From: a virus
Lineage: Duplodnaviria; Heunggongvirae; Uroviricota; Caudoviricetes
Virus record (IMG/VR): IMGVR_UViG_2737471857_000022
Length of the DNA: 36,183 bases
Strand: one strand, 5' to 3'
The notes under the pieces were generated by a model. The model was not told the origin of the DNA, searched no databases, and saw only the letters and a list, made by a program, of their open reading frames with translations. Shown in pieces: positions 415 to 33,421 of the stretch (the stretch's first letter is position 1; every line of letters starts with the position of its first letter). Both the position numbers and the translations under genes were made by a program.

Positions 415-720
415 TCACTTAATATCTTTCATTTTACGGATACGCGCGCTTGCTTCCGGTAGTTCATCCAGTGTTACGTGATAAGCAAGCATACAGACAG
501 GAGTCGGATCGAATCCCTCATGAGTATTGATCAGATGGCTATTCCCGCCTTTAAATTCATCCTGTCCATCCCACATAGCGTACACGTCATCTTCTGCTAC
601 ATAGATAATCAATCCAATAGGGGAGTTAGTAAGCTGGAAGATGCAGCCAGTAGAATCAATACGATGTTCCCGAACGTCATCAACAGTTTCAAAGTCAATC
701 TTAATATCTTTAGTCTTCAT
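415..720 (-). CDS. hypothetical protein (101 aa), first gene inside the putative prophage left end
   Basis: Intact ORF; GAGGG Shine-Dalgarno about 6 nt upstream on the minus strand; no family recognised. Confidence 0.55.
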   Translation of the reverse strand: MKTKDIKIDFETVDDVREHRIDSTGCIFQLTNSPIGLIIYVAEDDVYAMWDGQDEFKGGNSHLINTHEGFDPTPVCMLAYHVTLDELPEASARIRKMKDIK

Positions 721-2217: not shown

Positions 2218-2243
2218 GGGACTCTTCGGAGTCCCTTTTTTTA
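2218..2243 (+). terminator. rho-independent terminator (GGGACTC-TTCG-GAGTCCC plus TTTTTTT)
   Basis: Perfect 7-bp stem, UUCG loop, 8 T. Second terminator about 80 bp after the first. Confidence 0.75.
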
Positions 2244-3182
2244 TTGGCAGTAAGAAAAGTTAGTACCGTACATTTCATCATGAAGCATTGCAGCATTGCG
2301 TTTCTGTTCTTCTTCCTCATCTTCTACATCACTAGAAAAATGAGATTTGCCCTTAAAAGAACGAAGTAATTGCAGTGCAGCCATCGGATCACGCATCACA
2401 TCGATTTTCACTTCTACTTCATCATTTGCGGCCTCATCAGCCGCGTTTTCAACTACTGCTACCGGAGCAACTTCTTTAGCTTTCAGTTCTTCAATCTCAG
2501 CTTTCTGTGCTTCGATAATCTGGTCTTTTTCTTCCAGTGCAGCTTTCAGTTCTGCGATCTGTGCTTCCAGTGCAGCAAAGCGATCTTCAACAACCGGAGA
2601 AACAGCATTCACCTGTGCTTCCAGTTCCAGAAATGCTTCGCAAGATTCAATACGTTCTTTCTCTTCACCTTCATAAGCAACCAGTTCTACAACTTCTTTT
2701 TCGGTAGCGTGGCTGTTAAAGAAAACAGCAAAGTAAGGATTGCCGGATTTAGTGAAGTTCAGTTTAGCTTTTCCGGTAACTTCTTTACGACGACCGAAGG
2801 TGATCTGGCAATCAGCGGTATCCTGAAAATCCATGTTAGGAGCGGAAACGATAGCAGTATCACCAGCAATAACCAGGTGGAACAGTTCAGAAGAGTTCTT
2901 AACGGTAAAAGTAACGATGTGGTCTACTGCAACGTCTTTAGCAGGTTTAACGCGGTCGATTGCTTTACGAATGCCGTTAGGCAGTTTACCGTCAACACCA
3001 AAGCCAGCCGCGATCAGTGCTTCACGATGTGCTTTAAAGCCAGCGAAGGCGGATTTCTGCTGCGCAAAGGAAACATGAGCAACAACTTTCGGCTGAATCT
3101 TCTTGTTTGCTTCGGTGCCAAATTTGATAACTGCTTTAGCGTTGGTTACTTCGTTAGTGAAAAAGTTAGCGGAAAATAACAT
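2241..3182 (-). CDS. hypothetical protein (313 aa) with central coiled coil and acidic C-terminus
   Basis: ORF with AGGAG SD 8 nt upstream; heptad-like EAQIAELKAALEEKDQIIEAQKAEIEELKAKE; no family recognised. Confidence 0.6.
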   Translation of the reverse strand: MLFSANFFTNEVTNAKAVIKFGTEANKKIQPKVVAHVSFAQQKSAFAGFKAHREALIAAGFGVDGKLPNGIRKAIDRVKPAKDVAVDHIVTFTVKNSSELFHLVIAGDTAIVSAPNMDFQDTADCQITFGRRKEVTGKAKLNFTKSGNPYFAVFFNSHATEKEVVELVAYEGEEKERIESCEAFLELEAQVNAVSPVVEDRFAALEAQIAELKAALEEKDQIIEAQKAEIEELKAKEVAPVAVVENAADEAANDEVEVKIDVMRDPMAALQLLRSFKGKSHFSSDVEDEEEEQKRNAAMLHDEMYGTNFSYCQ

Positions 3183-3295
3183 TATAAATACTCCTGTGGA
3201 AAGTTAGTTTTAATTGTTCATTTCAAGCCTCCTTTGCTGCAACAAGGGAGGCTTTTTCTTTTTTTAAAGCCATCATATAATTCTCAGTCAAAGTA

Positions 3296-3478
3296 TCAGT
3301 AAACCTCTGCGGTTATCTTTACTTTAATGTCATACTTCTTTAAGAGTTTATGAAAGGTTGATTTATCGATACCCTCATTTTTAAACCACTCTTCAATTCT
3401 CACACCCGGCGTTAACTCAAAGTAGCGTTTAGCCATTTCTAAGATGATTTCGCGAGTGAACTTAACAGGTCGTGCCAT
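3296..3478 (-). CDS. small HTH DNA-binding protein (60 aa), Hin/resolvase-type HTH-like
   Basis: AGGAGG SD 5 nt upstream; ARPVKFT...GIDKSTFHKLLKKYDIK resembles a GRPxK-type HTH; paralogous to CDS 6886..7113. Confidence 0.55.
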   Translation of the reverse strand: MARPVKFTREIILEMAKRYFELTPGVRIEEWFKNEGIDKSTFHKLLKKYDIKVKITAEVY

Positions 3479-3994
3479 CTCGAATCCTCCTACAATGTGG
3501 ATTAATGATTTCTTAAAAAAGAGCGTTAACCGCTCACTATTATTTATATGGGGATTGTATTTTATTTTTCAACCCCTCACATTTATCTCTTATATATGTA
3601 TTTACAACAGAGATATGTTAAAATGTTATTCAGATGTTATCAGGCGTGTTAAATGTGTTAAACCACAGCACGAATTGCTAAAGCGAAGAACACGATTTAA
3701 CCAAATTGATGTATATTCAATCAATTTAGAAAAAGGCATAGCACTTTTTGCTAAAGCGGTGAGCATTAATTGAGCTATGAATTGTAAAGATTTGTTACAA
3801 GATTTTCTCTCAGATCCAAATCTTCACAGACATATAACAATTTAACAGAAGGATAACAATAGGAAGGAAAATCGGTAAATTTTCACTTTCAATACAAATA
3901 TTATGACATATTTATCTCTAATTTTCAAGTATACCACTGTTCCTGCACAGTGTCAACAAAGGACTTTCAAACCTACACTAGCCCTACACTATGA

Positions 3995-4237
3995 AAATTG
4001 CCCCCGAATTTTTGCCCCTGAACCAAAATCCCCTAGATTTCACATCCCATTTTTGCCCCTGAAACCCACTATTTTTGCCCCTGAAATTCTGGGAAACAGT
4101 GATTTTGCCCCTTATTTTTGCCCCTGAAATGCCAATAATTGCCCCTGAAAATCTAATTTTTGCCCCTGAATTTTGCCCCTGAAAAGGATTTGTGAGAAAA
4201 ACTCTTTATAAAACATTAACTTAGTGAGGGGCAAAAC
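3995..4237. repeat. iteron array: at least 6 perfect and 3 degenerate direct copies of TTTTGCCCCTGAA plus one inverted copy
   Basis: Perfect copies start at 4010, 4051, 4073, 4116, 4158 and 4171. Degenerate copies near 3997, 4103 and 4139. Inverted copy GAGGGGCAAAA at 4225-4235. Confidence 0.85.
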
Positions 4238-4239
4238 AG

Positions 4240-4860
4240 GGAATCGGGCGTGCATAGATATTATATAACACATTCGCTACGCTCATGTGTAAAACCAAAA
4301 ACAACAAATAACCAAAAAGATATTAGGAGGGCGTAGCCCGACTGCGCGAAGCGCTAACCAATTACTTCTAGTAACACTAATTTAAACTAGATGATACTAG
4401 ATGGTCTTAGAAGGAATTAACTAGTTTGCTCGCTCGCTTCGCTCACTCTCAAACGTCTGCGACGCCACTGCGTGGCATCGAGAATCACTTCTGAAAGGAT
4501 TTTCTTGAAAGGGATTTTAAACTAGTTACTAACTGATTCTAGAAAGATAGTAATAATCACTTTGAAGATAATAGTAGTTAACTGGTTACTAGATGATTCT
4601 AGATCACTTTAATGATCATGAAAGGTATTGGTTATCCCTTCGGGATTGCAACCTTCGGTTGCTAAATTGCTTCCGGATTATTATTTCTCCAAAAGAAAGA
4701 TTCTTATATTCTAAAGATACTTCTTCGTTTTGATGATGATTTAATCAAAATCTATGAAGGAGGCGAAGCCGACTGAATACCAATTCCTTTCAAATTAGAC
4801 AAAAATTTCTCGTTATAAATAATAGTGTACTTTGTTTGATTCACTTTCTTTTAGAGGATT
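4240..4860. other. about 600 bp non-coding region with clustered ACTAG(A/T)T motifs and tandem UUCG-loop hairpins
   Basis: No ORF of 60 aa or more with an RBS. CTAG-containing motifs at 4366, 4387, 4396, 4420, 4521, 4537, 4588 and 4597. Hairpins at about 4458-4480, 4633-4645 and 4648-4663. Confidence 0.4.
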
Positions 4861-4866
4861 TCCACT

Positions 4867-5319
4867 ATGATCAATACTAAAACTCCTTTCATTCTTCTGG
4901 GTCTGAACCATGATGATAATCTGGCTATGATGCATGTTTTCGCTAATCGTGGTTATAACATCATTCGTCATTCCGAAGACTCCAATTTCTCAACTGCTTT
5001 CTATGCTCTTAAACGTAATGGTCGCCCTACGGTGATCGTAGACTGCTTTACTGATGAAGGTCGTGAACAATACAACAACATTCCGGCAATTATTGTTCGT
5101 GATGACCTGCCGTTTGATGTTCGTGAATATGACGTTGATTTAGGCTCTTACTATGGGATCGCCGATCTTGACCAGATTATGGCTGATTATGGTAAACAAC
5201 CCGCTCAGGAAGCCCCAGAACACGATGAACAAGACGAAGATGACGACGACTACGCACCAATCTGCTTCTCTTCTCAGAATGGCTTCTACGGTTACGATGA
5301 AGGCTTAGATATGCTGTAA
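4867..5319 (+). CDS. hypothetical protein (150 aa) with acidic C-terminal tail
   Basis: ORF with GAGGA SD; codon usage consistent with neighbours; no family recognised. Confidence 0.6.
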   Translation: MINTKTPFILLGLNHDDNLAMMHVFANRGYNIIRHSEDSNFSTAFYALKRNGRPTVIVDCFTDEGREQYNNIPAIIVRDDLPFDVREYDVDLGSYYGIADLDQIMADYGKQPAQEAPEHDEQDEDDDDYAPICFSSQNGFYGYDEGLDML

Positions 5320-5341
5320 GTTAGGTCAACCCTTTGGCGTC

Positions 5342-5383
5342 TTGTCAAGGGGTATTGACAAAATTTTCTGACTTTTTTATGAT
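5342..5383 (+). promoter_or_regulatory. sigma70-like promoter (TTGACA-17 nt-TATGAT) overlapped by palindrome TTGTCAA-N6-TTGACAA
   Basis: -35 at 5355-5360, -10 at 5378-5383, inverted repeat at 5342-5361; a further TTGACAA at 5392-5398. Confidence 0.45.
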
Positions 5384-5439
5384 TATCGCACTTGACAATT
5401 TTGAACCTATTTGACCTAGATTTGTAAAGAGGATGTAAC

Positions 5440-5772
5440 ATGAAAGAATTTACCATCACTAAATCCCTGTATGACTGGACTGTTAAAATCTCCGGCAAAA
5501 CCGTTTCTGTAAGCCCTAGCCATGTAGAAAATGATTGGGGCGTATCCCGTGAAACTATCTCCCGTAGTATGCATGTTCCGTTTGATCTGATGTCCTTAAC
5601 TGGTATTCATGCAATGCTGGAAGTTCGCGAACAATTCGAAGCTGGTAATCACAATGCGACTCCAGTTAGCAATCACCTTCTTACTAATGAAGAACGTGAA
5701 ATCATCGAAAACTGGCGTTATGAATATGCGATTCCTTATTATGAAGAAGATCAGGTAGAAATCGATTGGTAA
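5440..5772 (+). CDS. hypothetical protein (110 aa)
   Basis: ORF with AGAGGA SD; no family recognised. Confidence 0.6.
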   Translation: MKEFTITKSLYDWTVKISGKTVSVSPSHVENDWGVSRETISRSMHVPFDLMSLTGIHAMLEVREQFEAGNHNATPVSNHLLTNEEREIIENWRYEYAIPYYEEDQVEIDW

Positions 5773-5861
5773 TAAATTTCTATTATAAATAAAATTGTTC
5801 CGGTGGTGATGCCGGAACTAGGAGGACCAAATCATTAAACCGTTTAAGGGGAATTAATACT

Positions 5862-6737
5862 ATGAATACTGTTACTACTATGAATACTGCTAACGTTTCT
5901 TTTGATGCTTCTCTGACTGCCACAAAGAAAGAATGGCAAATCGATAAAACCGCTTCAATGTCTCTGGTTGTTGATAACACCAAACCGCTGACCATGTCTA
6001 CTTTGCAGATCGCGCAAATGATGGATCGCGTAGACCGCCACCGTGATATTAAGCGAACTGTTGACCGTCTCGTTTCTTCCGGTGTAATTGTCCACACGCC
6101 AACGGCGCGCGAACAACTGGAAGATAAATTTGGTCGTTCTCGTGAAATTGAAGTTTATCTTCTTGATGAACGTTCGTCATATATTGTTGTTGCTCAAATT
6201 TCGCCAGAATTTACCGCTTTTATCGTTGATGAATGGAAGCGACTGAAAGAAGAAAATGAAAAACTTCGCTCTACTCCTGTTAACCCGTATGCAGACTTTG
6301 AAGAAACAGACTGGATCGAACTGGCATTAGATGAAAAACGCAAAAATAAAAAACTGATTGAGCTACACATTCGCAAATCCGTAGATAGCCATTCTATGAC
6401 ACGTCTGTTAGGCGCTAAAAAGGGCGCTACGAAGGTTAAAGAAGCACTAACGGCCTTGCGTACTGCTGGCTACATTGAGCGCGTCTACGATGAAAATAAC
6501 AAGCCGTGTGGGTATGTTGCTAATGACTCTTCTCTGTCTTTCTGCCGCATGAATGCTCACTACCAACTTGAGTTTACTGTTGATGTTCTTCCGGTGCTGG
6601 TTGAATTGGGCGTTTTGGAAGAAGAACAGAAAGCAACTCTTAAACTACCGCAGCCAAATAACACTATTCTGATTCAAAATAAAGCGGCTGAACGTCTCCG
6701 CCAGAATGTTGGATCACTGGAAGTCTTCGGACTGTAA
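5862..6737 (+). CDS. Rha-like phage regulatory protein / antirepressor-type protein (291 aa)
   Basis: Segment LTMSTLQIAQMMDRVDRHRDIKRTVDRL resembles the Rha-family N-terminal motif (recalled); AAGGGG SD. Confidence 0.5.
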   Translation: MNTVTTMNTANVSFDASLTATKKEWQIDKTASMSLVVDNTKPLTMSTLQIAQMMDRVDRHRDIKRTVDRLVSSGVIVHTPTAREQLEDKFGRSREIEVYLLDERSSYIVVAQISPEFTAFIVDEWKRLKEENEKLRSTPVNPYADFEETDWIELALDEKRKNKKLIELHIRKSVDSHSMTRLLGAKKGATKVKEALTALRTAGYIERVYDENNKPCGYVANDSSLSFCRMNAHYQLEFTVDVLPVLVELGVLEEEQKATLKLPQPNNTILIQNKAAERLRQNVGSLEVFGL

Positions 6738-7841: not shown

Positions 7842-9749
7842 ATGAAACTGATTTCTAATAAGGCCAAATTAAAAAAGATTCTCAGAAATGCAGCCAAATA
7901 TATTACGCCACCGCCTAAACTCCTCCCTTCTGAATGGTGCGAAGCGAATATGGTGCTGGTAGATGGTCCTCAAGCTGGGGATAAAGTTAAATTGCTGTCA
8001 TTCCAGAAAGGCATGATTGATGCTCCTTTCCTTGAGAACAAGAAAAAGTATGTTCTGATGACCAGTGCGCAGATCGGAAAGACTACCATCCTGAACGGTA
8101 TCCTGTTTAACCAGATGGCTAACGATCCATGCAATATGATTATCGGACAATCAACCGCTAAAGAAATGTCTCAATATCTCGCGGGTAAGATCCGACCGTC
8201 CATCGAAGCATGTGATGCATTAAAAGACGTGGTTACAGACAAGAATGATCGCAATGCGGTTAACAACAATAACCAGCTACAGCTAAAAACGAATCACTTC
8301 CTGTACATGGTATCGCTTACCAGTCCATCAACCCTACGTGGTAAGACCGCAAAGGTTGGATTGCTTGACGAAATCGATGCTGCTACAGCCTCAGAAGAAG
8401 GTGATCCGGTGGCGCTGGCTGCTAACCGTTTAACTACCTTTGGCGATGAAGGTCGATTAGTCGTATCCAGTACCCCGACCAGTAAGCTCGGAAGCATTAA
8501 CCAGCAATGGTTATCAAGTGATATGCGTATGTTTTTTGTTCCGTGTCCTCATTGCGGTAGACACCAGGTGATCGAGTGGGAAAACGTACAGTTTGAATGG
8601 CGTAACATCGATGGTAAGAATTTACCCGATCCTGATACCGCTCGTTATATTTGCCCCCATTGTAAGAACGCATGGACAGAAGGGGAACGAATCAGGGCAG
8701 TAGCGCAAGGCGAGTGGAGAGCAACCCGTGAAAGTGAAGTAGCAGGATTCTGGATTAGCCGTCTGTATTCACCTTTCAGCACGATCCGCGCTTGTGTGGT
8801 TGATTTTAGTCATGCGTGGCAATCCTTTGATTTACAATCATTTTATAACACCGTGTTAGGCAAGGTATACGACGATCAGGACACGGCAGTAGAAGCAAAT
8901 GAACTGGAACAACTCAAAACAGATGTTTCTATCGAGAATATCCCTGATGACGTGATTTTCTTGTGTTCAGGAATCGACCAGCAATTGGACCGCGCAGAAT
9001 CTACCATCTTAGGTGTAGCGAAAGATAAGGTTTACATTCTGGATCACCGCAGCTTTTACGATCATAACTGTGAACGATATGAATCACCTGTTTGGGATCG
9101 TCTGGTTAACTTCAAGAAAACCAAATTCTATAACGTTAATGGTGAACGTGTGCCAATGCTCGCCAGCTTCCTTGATACATCGAACGGTCGATTCACTCAA
9201 GCCGGATACCGTATTTGTGGCAAGTGGAAGAACCTACACGCGATCAAAGGTAGTTCATCCGGTAATGCTCCAGTGATTCCGGTTAAACCTACCCGCACAG
9301 GTGGTCATGAATTGCTTATGTTGGGTGTTAACGTTGGGAAATCTGCTGTTCGTGAAATGCTGGTTAGAAACCTGAAAGACAATCCTCACATCGGCTTAGA
9401 AATATCAGAAACCGTTCCTGATGATTATCTCGATCAGCTTTTGAGTGAATCCATCAAGCGTACTACTACTGGCGTGCGTTGGGTGAAAAATCCAGGTAGT
9501 ACCCGAAACGAGGCTCTCGACTGTCTGGTTTATAGCTATGCTGCTTCTCGCTACGTCCTTTCAAAAATGTCATGGGATAAACTCATTGCAATGAAAGACA
9601 GCTTAAACCGTGTTGTCGAAGAACCCGTAAAAGCTCCTGAAACGCAATCTGACGAGCAAATCGAAGAAACTAAGCCAATCACACGACCACAACGTCAAAA
9701 CATCGCCAGACGTCCAAATAGAGGCCGTAGTTGGGTAACATCGTTCTAA
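7842..9749 (+). CDS. terminase large subunit, lambda GpA-like (635 aa)
   Basis: P-loop TSAQIGKT near residue 75, two Cys-x2-Cys pairs ([16 protein letters not shown]); size and position ahead of portal. Confidence 0.85.
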
Positions 9750-31312: not shown

Positions 31313-31894
31313 TTAGAATATGCTGGCGACGTTAGCTATATTTCTGACCATTTTTTCATTATAAACAAACGTTTCTGTAGCACCTTCTTTAATATCAAAA
31401 TCACCTTTTACTAGGTTTTTCTTGATAAACAATTCTGCCGCGTATGCGTCTTTTTCGTCTTGAAATTCGAAAGTCTCGATGATATCAAATTTCATCTTAT
31501 TCTGGCATCTTAGCTTATGTTTTCTCGTCAACACATTGTGACTTACTCCAACCTTACCCACATCACCACACCGCATAACATATAATACTGGTTGCCCATT
31601 TTTATATTTGTTGTCATATTTGCTACGATTACACGGGCACACAGTAGGATTATGTAAGAATTGTTTTGCTGTTATATCTCTGATTCTTGCGCAGCTTTCA
31701 CACTCTAGCACAATACGGCTATTGATTGATTTATACTCACCTTTGAATCCGTGATAAATCAAGGGTAAACCCTCGTTTTCAATACGGGTCACGATCCTTG
31801 CTTCCATATCAATTGGATGTGATGGCGCTTTGCCATTTTTGGTGCGGATAAAATTGAACGGGATATCACATGCTTTGCGCACATCATTCATCAT
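31313..31894 (-). CDS. zinc-ribbon plus GIY-YIG-like (T5orf172-type) domain protein (about 193 aa from ATG 31894; ORF opens at GTG 31906)
   Basis: CESCARIRDITAKQFLHNPTVCPC then PVLYVMRCGDVGKVGVSHN..R..H; paralogous to CDS 32423..33421; GAGG SD. Confidence 0.55.
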   Translation of the reverse strand: MMNDVRKACDIPFNFIRTKNGKAPSHPIDMEARIVTRIENEGLPLIYHGFKGEYKSINSRIVLECESCARIRDITAKQFLHNPTVCPCNRSKYDNKYKNGQPVLYVMRCGDVGKVGVSHNVLTRKHKLRCQNKMKFDIIETFEFQDEKDAYAAELFIKKNLVKGDFDIKEGATETFVYNEKMVRNIANVASIF

Positions 31895-31934
31895 AAAAAA
31901 CCTCACTTAATTTATCTTATAGGCATTACCTTTA

Positions 31935-32387
31935 ATGTTGATGATCGAGTTCGTAGAAACCGAATTAACTAAACTGGCTTCCGAAATGGAAGAAGAAACT
32001 CCGGCAGAAGGAACCAGTATTAACGATCTTATTCTGGCAGCAGACACCGCAGATGATAAAGTGATATTCGACGAAGTTGATCCGTCTCTGGTTGAAGCAA
32101 TGAAAGAACCTGAGATCGCCATTGAAGAAACAAAAGAAGAATCTCCAGCAGTTGAACCAGTGGTCGAAGAAGTTAAGTCAGATGTTGAAGAAGCACCGGA
32201 AGTTAAAGTGGAATCTCCGGTAGCCAACATTTTCTCTAACGAAGCAGAACATCGTTCCCCAGCACATGACACTGATTCATTTTGCGATCTTACTGGCTTC
32301 CGTCCGACCATTTGCTTGATCGGTGGCGGTCGTGGTTACTACTCCTGCCCGTGGTCTTCAACCATTACAACAAATTTTTCTCAATAA
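31935..32387 (+). CDS. acidic low-complexity protein (150 aa); existence uncertain
   Basis: Glu/Pro/Val/Ala-rich ORF with host-like codon usage but no clear SD; the antisense ORF 31907..32311 is an alternative reading. Confidence 0.35.
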   Translation: MLMIEFVETELTKLASEMEEETPAEGTSINDLILAADTADDKVIFDEVDPSLVEAMKEPEIAIEETKEESPAVEPVVEEVKSDVEEAPEVKVESPVANIFSNEAEHRSPAHDTDSFCDLTGFRPTICLIGGGRGYYSCPWSSTITTNFSQ

Positions 32388-32422
32388 ATAGTAGTGAACT
32401 TATTATTTTCGAGGACACTAAT

Positions 32423-33421
32423 ATGAATACTACTTTAGCAAAGGATATCGAATTTACCGCAAAAAGCAAACGTGCGACCCCTCCGGTCGAATATGAAACC
32501 AGAATCATTAAAGTTTGTCAAGCGCATGGATGGTTATACAGTGGTTTTGTGCTTCCTGTAAAGAAACCATTCCAGAACACCAAAGTTTGCATAGAAGTTA
32601 ACGGAAAGGTTAAAACGCCATGTATTAGTCATGTTCTAACTGGTCAGTTTACTGGCAAAGATAGAGTATCACCGCCTAAGAAGAAGTTTAGATTTACCGA
32701 AGAAGAACACTTAGAAAACGCTCGCAAGTTCTACAAGCCGATAGGGTGGGATGTGTTAGGTCTGGCTGAACCTTATCAGGGTGTTGACACTAAACTAATT
32801 CTTCGTTGTAAGTGCCACGGAAAGATTCACAAGAAAGGTGATTTACACAATAACCGCAGACAAGGCGGGTTAACATGCCCTTTGGTTAGGGGTGTACTTA
32901 AATCAATTCAGAATGGTAGAAAACAGGTTATCAGAAACAAGTTTGCACAGCGCCCTATGCACTTTTATCTAATTCGTGTTGGCGAGAAGTTTTTCAAATA
33001 TGGAATTACCACTCGCAAAGATCCGATGCAACGGGTAAGAGAACACCAGAAGCACACCAGCGAGAAAATCACCTTTGAATGCTCACATTTGTTTAACATT
33101 GGATGGAAAGCTGGTGATTTAGAAATGGGGATTAAAAAGAATATTCAGGGCAAGAAAATCCCACGTAAGGTAATGAATAGCGGATTCACAGAAACGCTAC
33201 CGATTAGCAAGCTGAAAGATGTTAAATCATTCATCAATGAATACATCCACACCAACCCATCTAAGCCAATGTATTTTGATGATACCAACGCAATCAATCT
33301 GAACAACTACATTAGTGATGAAGACATAGAACGAGATTTATCGCAGTGGATGAATGCACCGTTAGCTGATTTAACACCGGAAAACTTAGAACTCGATTTA
33401 AGCCCTTTAGAGGCTCTCTAA
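32423..33421 (+). CDS. zinc-ribbon plus GIY-YIG-like (T5orf172-type) domain protein (333 aa from ATG 32423)
   Basis: GAGGA SD 7 nt upstream; LRCKCHGKIHKKGDLHNN...LTCP then MHFYLIRVGEKFFKYGITTR...R.REH; paralogue of 31313..31894. Confidence 0.6.
   Translation: MNTTLAKDIEFTAKSKRATPPVEYETRIIKVCQAHGWLYSGFVLPVKKPFQNTKVCIEVNGKVKTPCISHVLTGQFTGKDRVSPPKKKFRFTEEEHLENARKFYKPIGWDVLGLAEPYQGVDTKLILRCKCHGKIHKKGDLHNNRRQGGLTCPLVRGVLKSIQNGRKQVIRNKFAQRPMHFYLIRVGEKFFKYGITTRKDPMQRVREHQKHTSEKITFECSHLFNIGWKAGDLEMGIKKNIQGKKIPRKVMNSGFTETLPISKLKDVKSFINEYIHTNPSKPMYFDDTNAINLNNYISDEDIERDLSQWMNAPLADLTPENLELDLSPLEAL

Follow-up and report, generated by a model that had tools for sequence, protein, structure and literature searches.

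The stretch analysed here, rich in CTAG and in small hairpins, occupies the right-hand two-thirds of a non-coding region of 1.39 kb (3479–4866) flanked by divergent operons. Its carrier is a ~36-kb uncharacterised E. coli prophage, inserted in this case in hicB; the window, i.e. the whole stretch of DNA studied, is 36,183 bp long. To the left of the region lie the gene of a 60-aa HTH protein (3296–3478) and that of a 313-aa protein (2241–3182, minus strand); to the right, the gene of a 150-aa protein starts at 4867. The first-pass annotation had considered the stretch ORF-free, and this was confirmed: the RefSeq annotation of relatives contains no feature between the gene ending at 3478 and the gene starting at 4867, and the sole internal ORF (4593–4733, 46 aa) loses its frame through a 1-nt indel when near-identical relatives are compared. 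Related prophages were found in 58 of 5426 complete E. coli genomes, so that the family occurs in ~1% of them, and it is missing from the phage reference collection. Megablast searches with the region and with the surrounding 12 kb gave no match among 50,697 phage records. The plasmids searched with the region contained nothing similar. The 150-aa protein had no match in GTDB (one genome per species) and no phage homologue was found for it, and the neighbouring proteins gave no match in PADLOC or NCBIfam. The integrase is a large serine recombinase. As no recognisable repressor or replication gene was seen among the prophage genes, the 1.4-kb region must hold the control logic of the family. 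Mosaicism is extreme, with segments present or absent even between close relatives and, judged by sequence comparison, the region is modular: it is made of swappable repeat, palindrome and mini-hairpin cassettes, and does not constitute a single element.

A single strong sigma-70 promoter exists in the region (TTGACA-17-TATACT with TG; 3928–3956, minus strand); it lies outside the stretch and points left, into a 450-nt structured leader (minus-strand z of −4.5) that ends in a terminator (3535–3521 plus T6) just 5′ of the HTH gene. Its −35 box is abutted by an array of about ten iterons TTTTGCCCCTGAA with 21/42-bp spacing (3997–4184, plus strand), also outside the stretch, with one inverted copy at 4227–4236. 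In relatives, repeats of the form CCTACACTA, ATCCCCG or GATGTACA replace these iterons. The 313-aa protein, which has a variable N-terminal part of ~165 aa, a coiled coil and an acidic tail, changes type with the iterons, in such a way that each of the four repeat types is accompanied by a different protein of 313–360 aa. The 313-aa protein matched nothing in Pfam, PHROG, NCBIfam or PADLOC, a PDB profile search yielded coiled coils only, and the homologue search returned only near-identical ‘hypothetical’ proteins; an exhaustive search of 1.8e9 representatives with it yielded only 12 clusters, and two distant multi-repeat matches look spurious. Its single-sequence AF2 model was unusable (pLDDT 46). 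Types A and B coexist in one genome. The region thus offers a case of mosaic non-coding control DNA assembled from exchangeable modules, with at least four iteron/protein specificity types, two of them able to share one cell.

Concerning CTAG, the window contains 56 copies, where base composition predicts 133 and a Markov model 81, i.e. the tetranucleotide is otherwise counter-selected (observed/expected 0.42–0.69). Eight of the 56 lie within 4360–4605 (at 4368, 4387, 4397, 4421, 4522, 4539, 4589 and 4599), at a density 24-fold that found in the window outside this interval (Poisson P = 2.5e-9; scan-statistic P ~5e-5), and the interval is not enriched in any other 4-bp palindrome. The CTAG richness noticed at first pass is therefore borne out by the whole-window count, CTAG not being equally frequent elsewhere, and so is the tandem motif ACTAGATGATACTAGATG, located at 4386–4403. 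The description of at least eight ACTAG(A/T)T-type motifs was right about the number of CTAGs and too narrow about their form, which holds for some sites only because the flanks vary (ACTAGA three times, ACTAGT twice and TCTAG(A/T) three times). On the other hand, the idea that CTAG is itself a recognised element was not sustained: relatives have from one to eight CTAGs in the same region, some of them read ACATGATGATTCAAGATCAC where the window has ACTAGATGATTCTAGATCAC, and some have CATG or CAAG in place of CTAG. Half of the window’s CTAGs in the stretch derive from a 60-bp tandem duplication together with a 10-bp triplication, the former being the source of half of CTAG cluster 2. It seems reasonable to interpret that CTAG richness would be a by-product of the TA-centred cores of operator-type palindromes (TTCTAGAA, AACTAGTT, TCTAGA), the units of which would have been multiplied by the 60-bp duplication and the 10-bp triplication. 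An array of TrpR operators (ACTAGTTAACTAGT-like) was discarded, the CTAG spacings being 10, 17, 19 and 24 bp, and not 8. CTAG as a methylation or restriction target was also discarded, given the one to eight sites of relatives and the lack of any methyltransferase match among the scanned window proteins.

Between the iteron array and the first hairpins there is an A/T-rich, A/C-strand-biased spacer (4190–4325; 54–72% AT), with an inverted repeat ACACAT..ATGTGT and, at 4278–4286, the only relaxed DnaA-box-like 9-mer that a motif scan detected in the region. The spacer displays no RNA structure on either strand (z of +0.9 and +1.6). The following module (4326–4482) is a palindrome bracketed by C-G-closed triloop mini-hairpins, and it travels with the iteron array 3997–4184 and the 313-aa protein as a set of which there are at least four types. 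Mini-hairpin pair 1 (4329–4354, plus strand) consists of GGGC-GTA-GCCC (4329–4339), GACT and GCGC-GAA-GCGC (4344–4354), its GNA triloops showing the C-G closure on the plus strand; it is preceded by AGGAGG and followed by ACCAATTACTT, a context repeated around the hairpin at 4762 (repeat 4759–4789). The imperfect palindrome itself (4340–4448, minus strand; ~110 bp) is closed by GCGCGAAGCG / CGCTTCGC and carries in its apical part CTAG cluster 1 (4368, 4387, 4397 and 4421), three 10-bp-phased decamers ACTAGATGAT / ACTAGATGGT / CTTAGAAGGA (4386–4415) and the palindrome AACTAGTT. The ~110-bp palindrome is exclusive to iteron type A, its architecture recurring in type B with another sequence. Mini-hairpin pair 2 (4454–4480, minus strand) comprises CGTC-TGC-GACG (4454–4464) and GCCAC-TGC-GTGGC (4464–4476). 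The long GC hairpin proposed earlier at 4458–4480 is real, either as a single 9-bp stem at 4460–4480 (CGACGCCAC-TGC-GTGGCATCG, with a single C.A mismatch) or as these two adjacent perfect mini-hairpins. On the minus strand the loops of pair 2 read GCA and the C.A mismatch turns into G.U. At the same position, type B has the GC hairpin ACGCC-TAC-GGCGT and types C and D have GCGCCC-TGCG-GGGCGC.

The centre of the stretch (4483–4632) is an unstructured repeat array that holds CTAG cluster 2. Two 23–24-nt repeats AACT(A/G)GTTACTA(A/G)(C/A)TGATTCTAGA, at 4520–4543 and 4580–4603, are identical in 21 of 24 positions, lie 60 bp apart, and alternate with half-sites AATCACTTYN (4483, 4555 and 4602) and their inverse GAAAGnnATT (4493, 4507 and 4620). 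Within the array the half-palindromes AATCACTTTC/GAAAGnnATT form imperfect palindromes, as at 4483–4502, and there are also 10-bp-phased decamers at 4528–4547 and 4588–4607. Relatives have one repeat unit instead of two, or four half-sites, and one of them (L013) displays in the same place a perfect, CTAG-centred, 26-bp palindrome CCAATCACTTTCTAGAAAGTGATTGG. The half-sites are 4.3-fold enriched in 4186–4866, a modest enrichment for a motif that was defined after inspection of the data. They recur across the whole phage family and, like the Y repeats, are kept in all four iteron types; in the relatives compared, their variation does not track that of the HTH or the 150-aa proteins. The first-pass suggestion of an operator region and/or a structured RNA can thus be apportioned. 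The operator fits 4483–4632, with its repeats and imperfect palindromes and without RNA-structure excess on either strand (z of +0.3 and −0.3), while the structured RNA fits the flanks, 4326–4482 being significant only on the minus strand (z of −3.6 versus −1.6 on the plus strand) and 4633–4795 only on the plus strand (−2.6 versus −1.0 on the minus strand). The covariance models of Rfam 15, run against both strands of 3000–6000, gave no match at E ≤ 1.

To the right of the array, a cassette (4633–4795) combines tandem hairpins with a promoter-like stem-loop element. The hairpins, mini-hairpin pair 3 (4634–4662, plus strand), are ATCCC-TTC-GGGAT (4634–4646) and GCAACC-TTC-GGTTGC (4648–4662), separated by 1 nt and without a T tract. 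They had been described as two tandem UUCG-loop hairpins without T tracts; the hairpins and the missing T tracts are correct, whereas the UUCG tetraloop is not, since perfect complementarity needs 3-nt loops on stems of 5 and 6 bp and the C(UUCG)G register would leave only 1–2 bp. T4-type C(UUCG)G intercistronic RNA hairpins, reportedly those of Tuerk et al. in 1988, likewise are GC hairpins containing CTTCGG, without a U tract, in phage intergenic DNA, but pair 3 has UUC triloops on its 5- and 6-bp stems. No intrinsic terminator (a GC stem directly followed by a T/U run) was reported within 4240–4866, where the hairpins lack T tracts on the plus strand. The counterparts of pair 3 in relatives and in Krischvirus have other sequences and always perfect stems and 3-nt loops: TGC-TTC-GCA with GACGCTC-AGG-GAGCGTC, GTCGC-TTT-GCGAC with GTGCC-GTA/GGA-GGCAC, or TCGC-TTC-GCGA with CTCC-TAC-GGAG. 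The stems stay perfect while the sequences differ completely between lineages. Considering the whole window, six of its nine C-G-closed GNA/TNC triloop hairpins lie in 4329–4662, versus 0.04 expected. Such mini-hairpins are documented at G4 oric, RSF1010 ssiA and the N4 promoters (PMC13037366). The d(GCGNAGC) mini-hairpins and N4 hairpin promoters share with the present ones the C-G-closed GAA, GTA and GCA loops, the 4–6-bp stems and the clustering in control regions; unlike in N4, the prophage lacks a virion RNA polymerase of the N4 type, the GNA loops occur on either strand, and extrusion is putative. The three tandem pairs of C-G-closed GNA triloop mini-hairpins provide a natural test case for DNA- or RNA-hairpin signalling.

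The tandem hairpins lie 65 nt upstream of the promoter-like boxes and their stem-loop, which belong to an element (4676–4758, plus strand) that is ~80% identical to a repeat with 3–4 copies per genome in Krischvirus (RB49, JSE, phi1). The match covers 75–83 nt at 76–81% identity in 59 Krischvirus records, with at most four matched places per record. Within IMG/VR, the 22-nt core of the element occurs in exact form only in the prophage family and in two contigs of Krischvirus size (164.7 and 150.3 kb), with three copies in each. The sharing of a 75–150-bp non-coding cassette by a temperate siphophage and the virulent, T4-like Krischvirus directly records an exchange of regulatory DNA between very different phages. 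The element comprises an AT-rich part, TTCTAAAGATACTTCTTCG, a stem-loop TTTTGAT/ATCAAAA (4728–4734 / 4744–4750) and weak sigma-70-like boxes, TTGATG (4730–4735) and TATGAA (4753–4758), 17 nt apart and with 8/12 agreement to consensus. The consensus scan did not pick up this pair of boxes, which scores below window background with a PWM and whose spacer differs by 1–2 nt in some relatives. The stem lies between the boxes and contains one covarying pair (AU in 6, GC in 4 and GU in 2). In RB49 and JSE the intergenic element precedes an ORFan by 48 nt; of the four cassette copies in Krischvirus, two lack a downstream ORF, and the window contains no homologue of p130, the RB49 ORFan that follows the shared cassette. 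At the matching sites the RB49 record carries no promoter annotation, and the early promoters that it does annotate differ in sequence. The right end of the cassette (4759–4795, plus strand) is formed by GGAGG, the hairpin GGC-GAA-GCC (4762–4770; GGGC-TTTA-GCCC and similar in relatives), GACTG and the half-site AATTCCTTTC (4782–4791). The latter is the inverted partner of 4620–4632 and marks the right edge of the cassette, which one relative (L017) lacks entirely, owing to a deletion between ACAATCAC repeats in direct orientation. A MITE-like element, with inverted ends 4619–4632 / 4779–4792 and flanking direct repeats, was considered and rejected, as the ‘ends’ belong to the region-wide half-site family and the Krischvirus copies lack them.

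The cassette recalls the PeSL (promoter-early stem-loop) units, mobile regulatory cassettes of RB49 and phi1 (Arbiol et al. 2010, PMC2839356). The likeness extends to the intergenic composite structure, the AT-rich stretch, the −35/−10-like boxes around a stem-loop, the nearby hairpins, the several copies, and the gain and loss of segments by recombination, comparable to the deletion in L017. PeSL boxes are described as identical to the sigma-70 consensus, from which the boxes found here are far; moreover, the cassette is carried here by a temperate siphophage, in 1 to 1.5 copies, and has tandem triloop mini-hairpins and not polyG/polyC stems.

The last segment (4796–4866, plus strand), kept in all relatives, contains the predicted proximal promoter (TAGACA-16-AATAAT) and the translation start region of the 150-aa gene (ATG at 4867). 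It includes an TATAAATAATAG box (4814–4825), a half-site ATTCACTTTC (4839–4848) between promoter and ribosome site, and the Shine-Dalgarno sequence AGAGGA (4851–4856), all on the plus strand. The TATAAATAATAG box occurs three times in the window, versus 0.3 expected, each time 26–58 nt upstream of a gene, and six of the seven TATAAATA boxes of the window are just upstream of genes. Mimicry of T4 late promoters was rejected: the TATAAATA box precedes six different prophage genes and the late boxes annotated in RB49 are TGTAAATA, so it is more simply taken as the phage’s own −10 type. No sigma-70 promoter above window background exists within 4240–4795, and the next strong rightward one (5355–5383) is beyond the 150-aa gene.

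Our preferred explanation, to which we give about an even chance, is that the stretch, itself built from interchangeable cassettes, represents the rightward half of the main region of transcription control in a temperate siphophage. The anatomy, the enrichment, the modularity and the strand-specific structure signal are observations, while protein binding, promoter activity and what the hairpins do are inferences. The unstructured centre (4483–4632), with the half-sites at 4782 and 4839, would be an operator array, where a family-wide phage DNA-binding protein would bind both the CTAG-bearing repeats, with their helical phasing, and the imperfect palindromes AATCACTTTC-N-GAAAGnnATT, and would control transcription leaving the centre in both directions. 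Candidate binders are the conserved 60-aa HTH protein or a Rha-like protein. Small HTH switch proteins such as P2 Cox, 186 Apl and lambda Xis bind arrays of helically phased direct repeats. The decamers with 10-bp phasing (4386–4415, 4528–4547 and 4588–4607) near the 60-aa HTH gene resemble those arrays, with the differences that there is no sequence relation, that the integrase is here a large serine recombinase and that binding is putative. The rightward RNA would pass through, or start in, the promoter/stem-loop cassette (4633–4795) and at the TATAAATA-box promoter (4796–4823). The small GC hairpins may act as structural punctuation: as RNA they would block exonucleases or attenuate read-through, and in supercoiled DNA their C-GNA-G loops would be of the kind that extrudes easily.

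The control-region explanation agrees with the location between divergent operons, without ORFs, and with a centre that has direct and inverted repeats and no RNA-structure signal. It agrees also with the presence of half-sites in every iteron type, the perfect CTAG-centred palindrome of L013, and the divergent structure signal, minus-strand in 4326–4482 and plus-strand in 4633–4795; applied to the leader that follows the strong leftward promoter, the same strand-structure test identifies the transcribed strand correctly. The proximal box TATAAATAATAG is common to two other gene starts, the cassette resembles a Krischvirus element located upstream of an ORFan, and hairpin stems are perfect despite sequence replacement, CTAG itself not being conserved. 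Against it, 4240–4795 has no above-background sigma-70 promoter and the only strong one (3956–3928) points away; the half-sites were defined post hoc, are modestly enriched and do not track HTH or 150-aa variation; half of the four Krischvirus copies have no downstream ORF and the annotated early promoters of RB49 differ; and the left module, which travels with the iterons, fits a replication role equally well. That role is the core of a tentative alternative, compatible with the control-region reading for the part to the right of 4483, according to which the stretch would belong, as an accessory part, to a replication origin of the iteron type. In that case the candidate initiator would be the 313-aa protein, binding the ~10 iterons, with 4190–4325 as the melting region and the mini-hairpins as single-strand initiation signals where priming starts, the plus-strand hairpins of 4329–4354 facing minus-strand ones (4436, 4454–4476) across the palindrome. 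Such an arrangement recalls ssiA/ssiB in RSF1010 oriV, or the palindrome that adjoins the A/T-rich region in lambda ori. The 21/42-bp phasing of the iterons, the pairing of at least four iteron types with different N-terminal domains while TerS, TerL and HTH stay 87–91% identical, the constant linkage of 4326–4482 to iteron type, the coexistence of types A and B in one genome, and the lack of a recognisable replication gene in the phage speak for an origin, as does the concentration of triloop hairpins (6/9) in 4329–4662, similar to those of G4 oric, RSF1010 ssiA and N4 (PMC13037366). The succession of iterons, A/T-rich stretch and hairpins or palindrome is that of RSF1010 oriV ssiA/ssiB, lambda ori and the R1 G-site, and iteron origins with ssi hairpins share also the stable C-GAA-G type mini-hairpins on opposite strands and a neighbouring protein whose specificity changes with the iterons. 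However, initiator, primase or helicase homology is lacking, the 313-aa protein being unlike any initiator or known fold. Host-factor boxes are almost absent (one relaxed DnaA box at 4278–4286, no IHF consensus, GATC depleted), the A/T-rich part has just 54–72% AT, and no plasmid has anything similar. Hairpins are far fewer in types C and D, tandem triloop hairpins stand also beside the promoter-like element in Krischvirus, and the iterons, directly upstream of a strong promoter whose −35 they abut, would fit autoregulation or repression as well; origin function is putative.

Rather unlikely is that 4326–4482 encodes, or is part of, a leftward structured non-coding RNA of ~160–200 nt, starting in the repeat array and running towards the iterons, e.g. 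as a type-specific regulatory or priming RNA. The minus-strand fold is better than the plus-strand one by 9–14 kcal/mol in all 11 unique variants of types A and B, which share architecture despite different sequences, the strand difference in z recurring in type B (−4.8 versus −3.0). On the minus strand, natural single-base variants convert G.U to G-C, the Y repeats take the form TAGAAT (close to a consensus −10 hexamer), and types B and D have a hairpin followed by a U-rich run. Nevertheless, an imperfect DNA palindrome would yield part of this signal, the excess of G.U pairs (nine on the minus strand versus three on the plus strand; 9/12) is not significant alone, type A has no convincing promoter or terminator, and Rfam gave no match. 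There is no complementary target elsewhere in the module: a trans-acting antisense RNA was discarded because, in types A and B alike, 4326–4482 was no more complementary to the remainder of the module than expected by chance. Hardly probable is that most of the stretch is non-functional debris, its repeats and palindromes being scars of illegitimate or homologous recombination between regulatory cassettes, so that importance would be confined to the final ~70 bp, with the promoter and the ribosome site. The extreme mosaicism among close relatives, the 60-bp tandem duplication behind half of CTAG cluster 2, the loss of the cassette in L017 between ACAATCAC direct repeats and the variation of CTAG number from 1 to 8 would be explained in this way. 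The conservation of hairpin positions and perfect stems while sequences are replaced, the strand specificity of the RNA-structure signals and the maintenance of half-sites and Y repeats in all four iteron types would not; and, CTAG being otherwise counter-selected (0.42–0.69), its 24-fold excess in this place would probably not last unless it were selected for or of very recent origin. Finally, a terminase packaging (cos/pac) recognition site is extremely improbable. GC-rich islands in A/T-rich DNA with repeats do resemble cosB-like arrangements, and the large terminase belongs to the lambda gpA type, but the genes of the small terminase (1018–1578) and of the large one are each 3 kb away, on the left and on the right respectively, and the shared cassette is dispensable (L017). 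The packaging site was rejected because the terminases are conserved across unrelated modules, TerS and TerL being 89–91% identical between types A and B, in which 3997–4482 is unrelated.

A bolder pair of readings, distinctly unlikely, would be that (a) the family represents a new kind of phage replicon, with specificity given by swappable iterons, a putative initiator of unknown fold and a palindrome with C-GNA-G priming hairpins on opposite strands, and (b) the cassette, either copied from RB49-like lytic phages or common to them and the prophage, would with the TATAAATA box upstream of the first gene make the prophage respond to infection by such phages, or allow the two groups to exchange regulatory DNA.

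The CTAG-rich, hairpin-rich stretch at about 4240–4860, occupying the right two-thirds of the non-coding region 3479–4866, is a real and statistically solid feature. The window as a whole is poor in CTAG, with 56 sites versus 133 or 81 expected. Of these 56, 8 fall within 4368–4599, where their density is 24 times that of the background (Poisson P = 2.5e-9, scan-statistic P = 5e-5), so that the enrichment proposed in the first-pass annotation held on a whole-window count. No other 4-bp palindrome was enriched in the CTAG-dense stretch. The absence of ORFs, also claimed there, was confirmed, as a frameshift between near-identical relatives disrupts the single ORF (46 aa). It is precisely the CTAG-bearing repeats that are the strongest inside the region, namely 4520–4543 versus 4580–4603 (21/24 identical), 4386–4409 versus 4588–4611 (19/24 identical) and a 10-bp tandem at 4386/4396/4406; such CTAG-bearing repeats occurred at 3 offsets, versus 0.1 in shuffles. 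CTAG is not invariant, as family members have 1–8 sites in this stretch, and those with iterons of types C and D show ACATGATGATTCAAGATCAC at the position of ACTAGATGATTCTAGATCAC in the window, which is of type A. Rather than being the signal, CTAG is a symptom of palindromic and phased repeats, centred on TA, that underwent duplication.

A search of 50,697 phage records gave no near match to the region, which was matched in 58 of 5,426 complete E. coli genomes, with 77–98% identity. In the relatives, it lies inside a prophage of ~36 kb inserted in ycdX, which has genes for a small terminase, a large terminase of the lambda gpA type, portal, capsid and tail proteins and, at its far end, a large serine recombinase. 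The prophage of the window is inserted in hicB, with host DNA at 1–405, and the backbone common to the relatives begins at about 752. At least two integration sites occur within the family, ycdX (locus L001) and hicB (locus L034). The cargo next to attL varies: a 101-aa ORF in the window (415–720) and, in strain H2, a lysozyme inhibitor of the LprI family. The finding is contained in 1.39 kb of non-coding DNA (3479–4866), flanked on the left by a leftward operon with the genes of a 60-aa HTH protein (3296–3478) and a 313-aa protein (2241–3182, minus strand), and on the right by a rightward 150-aa gene (4867–5319). These three proteins matched no known family and gave only weak HTH and coiled-coil signals.

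A comparison of 28 IMG/VR relatives, anchored on the 150-aa gene, and two E. coli loci displayed a mosaic pattern. At 3997–4184, to the left of the finding, lies an array of about 10 iterons TTTTGCCCCTGAA, spaced by 21/42 bp, with an inverted copy at 4227–4236; two copies of CCTACAC are at 3970–3989. In other lineages, the iteron is swapped for CCTACACTA, ATCCCCG or GATGTACA repeats, and every repeat type comes with its own version of a coiled-coil protein of 313–360 aa. These versions are barely alignable (~20% identity), differ in the N-terminal domain according to the repeat type, and belong to an orphan family, for which 1.8e9 representatives yielded only 12 clusters; TerS, TerL and HTH are 87–91% identical between one type A and one type B phage. 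The first CTAG cluster (4368–4421) and its surroundings (4326–4482) were found only with type A iterons, while the sequence from about 4483 or 4585 rightwards is common to all types and assorts independently. Type A and type B prophages are found together in E. coli UTME-9 (NZ_CP157110.1; 2,804,027–2,806,115 and 3,412,759–3,413,409), and two type B copies were not seen in one genome, which is compatible with type-specific immunity or incompatibility.

Concerning the modules of the finding, 4190–4325 is A/T-rich and gave no structure signal. It is followed by the module 4326–4482, an imperfect palindrome of ~110 bp with two mini-hairpins before it (GGGC-GTA-GCCC and GCGC-GAA-GCGC) and two after it (CGTC-TGC-GACG and GCCAC-TGC-GTGGC). 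The long GC hairpin noted earlier (4458–4480) is indeed present. Type B keeps the layout of this module with a different sequence. Folded as RNA, its minus strand was 9–14 kcal/mol more stable in 11/11 unique variants, with z of −3.6 (minus) versus −1.6 (plus) in type A and −4.8 versus −3.0 in type B, and with 9 G.U pairs versus 3. The next module, 4483–4632, which includes the second CTAG cluster (4522–4599), showed no sign of structure on the plus or the minus strand. In it, two 23-nt repeats at a distance of 60 bp alternate with half-sites, AATCACTTYN or inverse GAAAGnnATT. Half-sites with up to 2 mismatches are 4.3-fold enriched in 4186–4866, with additional ones at 4782 and 4839, and one relative (L013) has a perfect 26-bp palindrome, CCAATCACTTTCTAGAAAGTGATTGG, at the corresponding site. 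Since most relatives have one 23-nt unit and not two, half of the second CTAG cluster is a recent duplication.

The mini-hairpins were considered as a class, defined as perfect triloops with a C-G-closed stem of at least 4 bp and a GNA or complementary TNC loop. Six of the nine members in the whole window lie in 4329–4662 (shuffle mean 0.04), arranged as three tandem pairs, with the GNA loops on the plus strand in the first pair and on the minus strand in the second and third; shorter hairpins occur at 4436 and 4762. The two tandem hairpins at 4633–4663, first described as UUCG-loop hairpins, do exist, but instead of UUCG tetraloops they are perfect 5- and 6-bp palindromes with TTC as a 3-nt centre. 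One of the only three members outside the finding, GTCGC-TAC-GCGAC (881–893), is in non-coding DNA upstream of the small-terminase gene. Such loops define the very stable DNA mini-hairpins reported at G4 oric, RSF1010 ssiA and N4 promoters (PMC13037366), so a role at the DNA level is possible, be it in origin priming or as hairpins extruded by supercoiling.

The module 4633–4795 is a cassette formed by the tandem hairpins, an AT-rich stretch and a stem-loop (4728–4750) flanked by TTGATG and TATGAA; GGAGG, the mini-hairpin GGC-GAA-GCC and GACTG follow in its right part. Its structured strand is the plus (z −2.6 versus −1.0). The entire module is missing from relative L017 (IMGVR_UViG_2534682338_000010; aligned to window 4606–4785), where the junction is at the direct repeat ACAATCAC, indicating an empty site or the loss of the module by recombination between repeats. 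Beyond it, 4796–4866 contains a conserved weak predicted promoter, a half-site and a ribosome-binding site; its TATAAATAATAG box is also upstream of two other genes, and 6/7 of the TATAAATA boxes in the window precede genes.

This cassette is common to the prophage family and Krischvirus. In the phage collection, the segment 4676–4758 had matches only in 59 Krischvirus records, with 76–81% identity to their intergenic DNA. A search of IMG/VR for its exact 22-nt core returned, besides this prophage family, just two contigs of Krischvirus size, each with three copies. The Krischvirus copies are at four loci, three of them mapped in RB49 (NC_005066.1; 62810–62889, 97540–97616 and 97690–97763, loci L036 and L031) and the fourth seen in the two contigs; a JSE copy is at 1001–1080 of locus L033, and the IMG/VR copies are loci L045, L050, L053, L058, L059 and L066. 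Each Krischvirus genome has 3–4 copies of this unannotated intergenic element, in which tandem triloop hairpins are combined with TTCTAAAGATCTTTCTTCGTTTTG and a covarying stem. In all Krischvirus copies, a pair of adjacent triloop hairpins lies 35–45 nt ahead of the element; the hairpin sequences differ among loci and from the prophage, and all stems are perfect. The internal stem has one covarying pair (AU 6, GU 2, GC 4). At one locus an ORFan lies 48 nt downstream; two other loci have no ORF, and the element there points at a convergent terminator. A literature search returned no description of its function in Krischvirus. The nearest described concept is the promoter-early stem-loop (PeSL) cassette of RB49 and phi1, a sigma-70 promoter plus stem-loop that mediates modular shuffling (PMC2839356). 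However, the boxes of the prophage cassette are weak and the annotated early promoters of RB49 do not contain its sequence, so we call it PeSL-like, and not a PeSL.

We infer that the region serves a little-known prophage family as a modular control region, a reading to which we give about an even chance. It is based on the position between divergent operons, the unstructured array of repeats and palindromes with opposite-strand structure signals on both sides, the promoter-like cassette, and the conserved proximal promoter, which has a half-site over its leader. Against it, no good sigma-70 promoter was detectable inside 4240–4795, and no binding protein was identified. A replication origin, which is doubtful, would explain why the iterons come with a matching variable protein and why replication genes are absent, as well as the mini-hairpins, but host-factor boxes are lacking and the protein has no initiator homology. 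Since the origin would concern mainly the DNA left of 4483, both readings may hold for different modules, and the control region is possibly also an origin. Somewhat less probable is a minus-strand RNA, suggested by a consistent, though modest, folding asymmetry; no trans target was found for it. It is unlikely that the stretch is debris or a packaging site.

Other signals were observed around the finding. A near-consensus leftward promoter with TG (TTGACA-17-TATACT, 3928–3956, minus strand) abuts the iterons and feeds a 450-nt leader (3479–3927), strongly structured on the minus strand (z −4.5), with five to six copies of (A/G)TGTTA(A/T), 8–12 bp apart, at 3616–3660. The leader ends in an intrinsic terminator (GAGCG-GTTAA-CGCTC plus T6, 3521–3535) immediately upstream of the ribosome-binding site of the HTH gene, which suggests attenuation control or a non-coding RNA of ~400 nt. 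Between the minus-strand HTH and 313-aa genes, a strong plus-strand intrinsic terminator (3225–3264, 12-bp stem plus T run) presumably stops antisense read-through from the left. After the 150-aa gene, a strong rightward promoter (TTGACA-17-TATGAT, 5355–5383) is surrounded by five TTGACAA/TTGTCAA/GGTCAA repeats (5320–5425), which may be the true operators of the lytic switch, ahead of the 110-aa and Rha-like genes. The small-terminase gene (PHROG 57, 1018–1578) is 6 kb apart from the large-terminase gene (7842–9749), an unusual arrangement for a gpA-type terminase, and those 6 kb are occupied by the whole control region and the early genes. Finally, two divergent endonuclease-like genes at 31313–33421 (PHROG 681; annotated as GIY-YIG in relatives), replaced in one relative by a DEAD/DEAH helicase gene, form a variable accessory region adjoining the serine recombinase.
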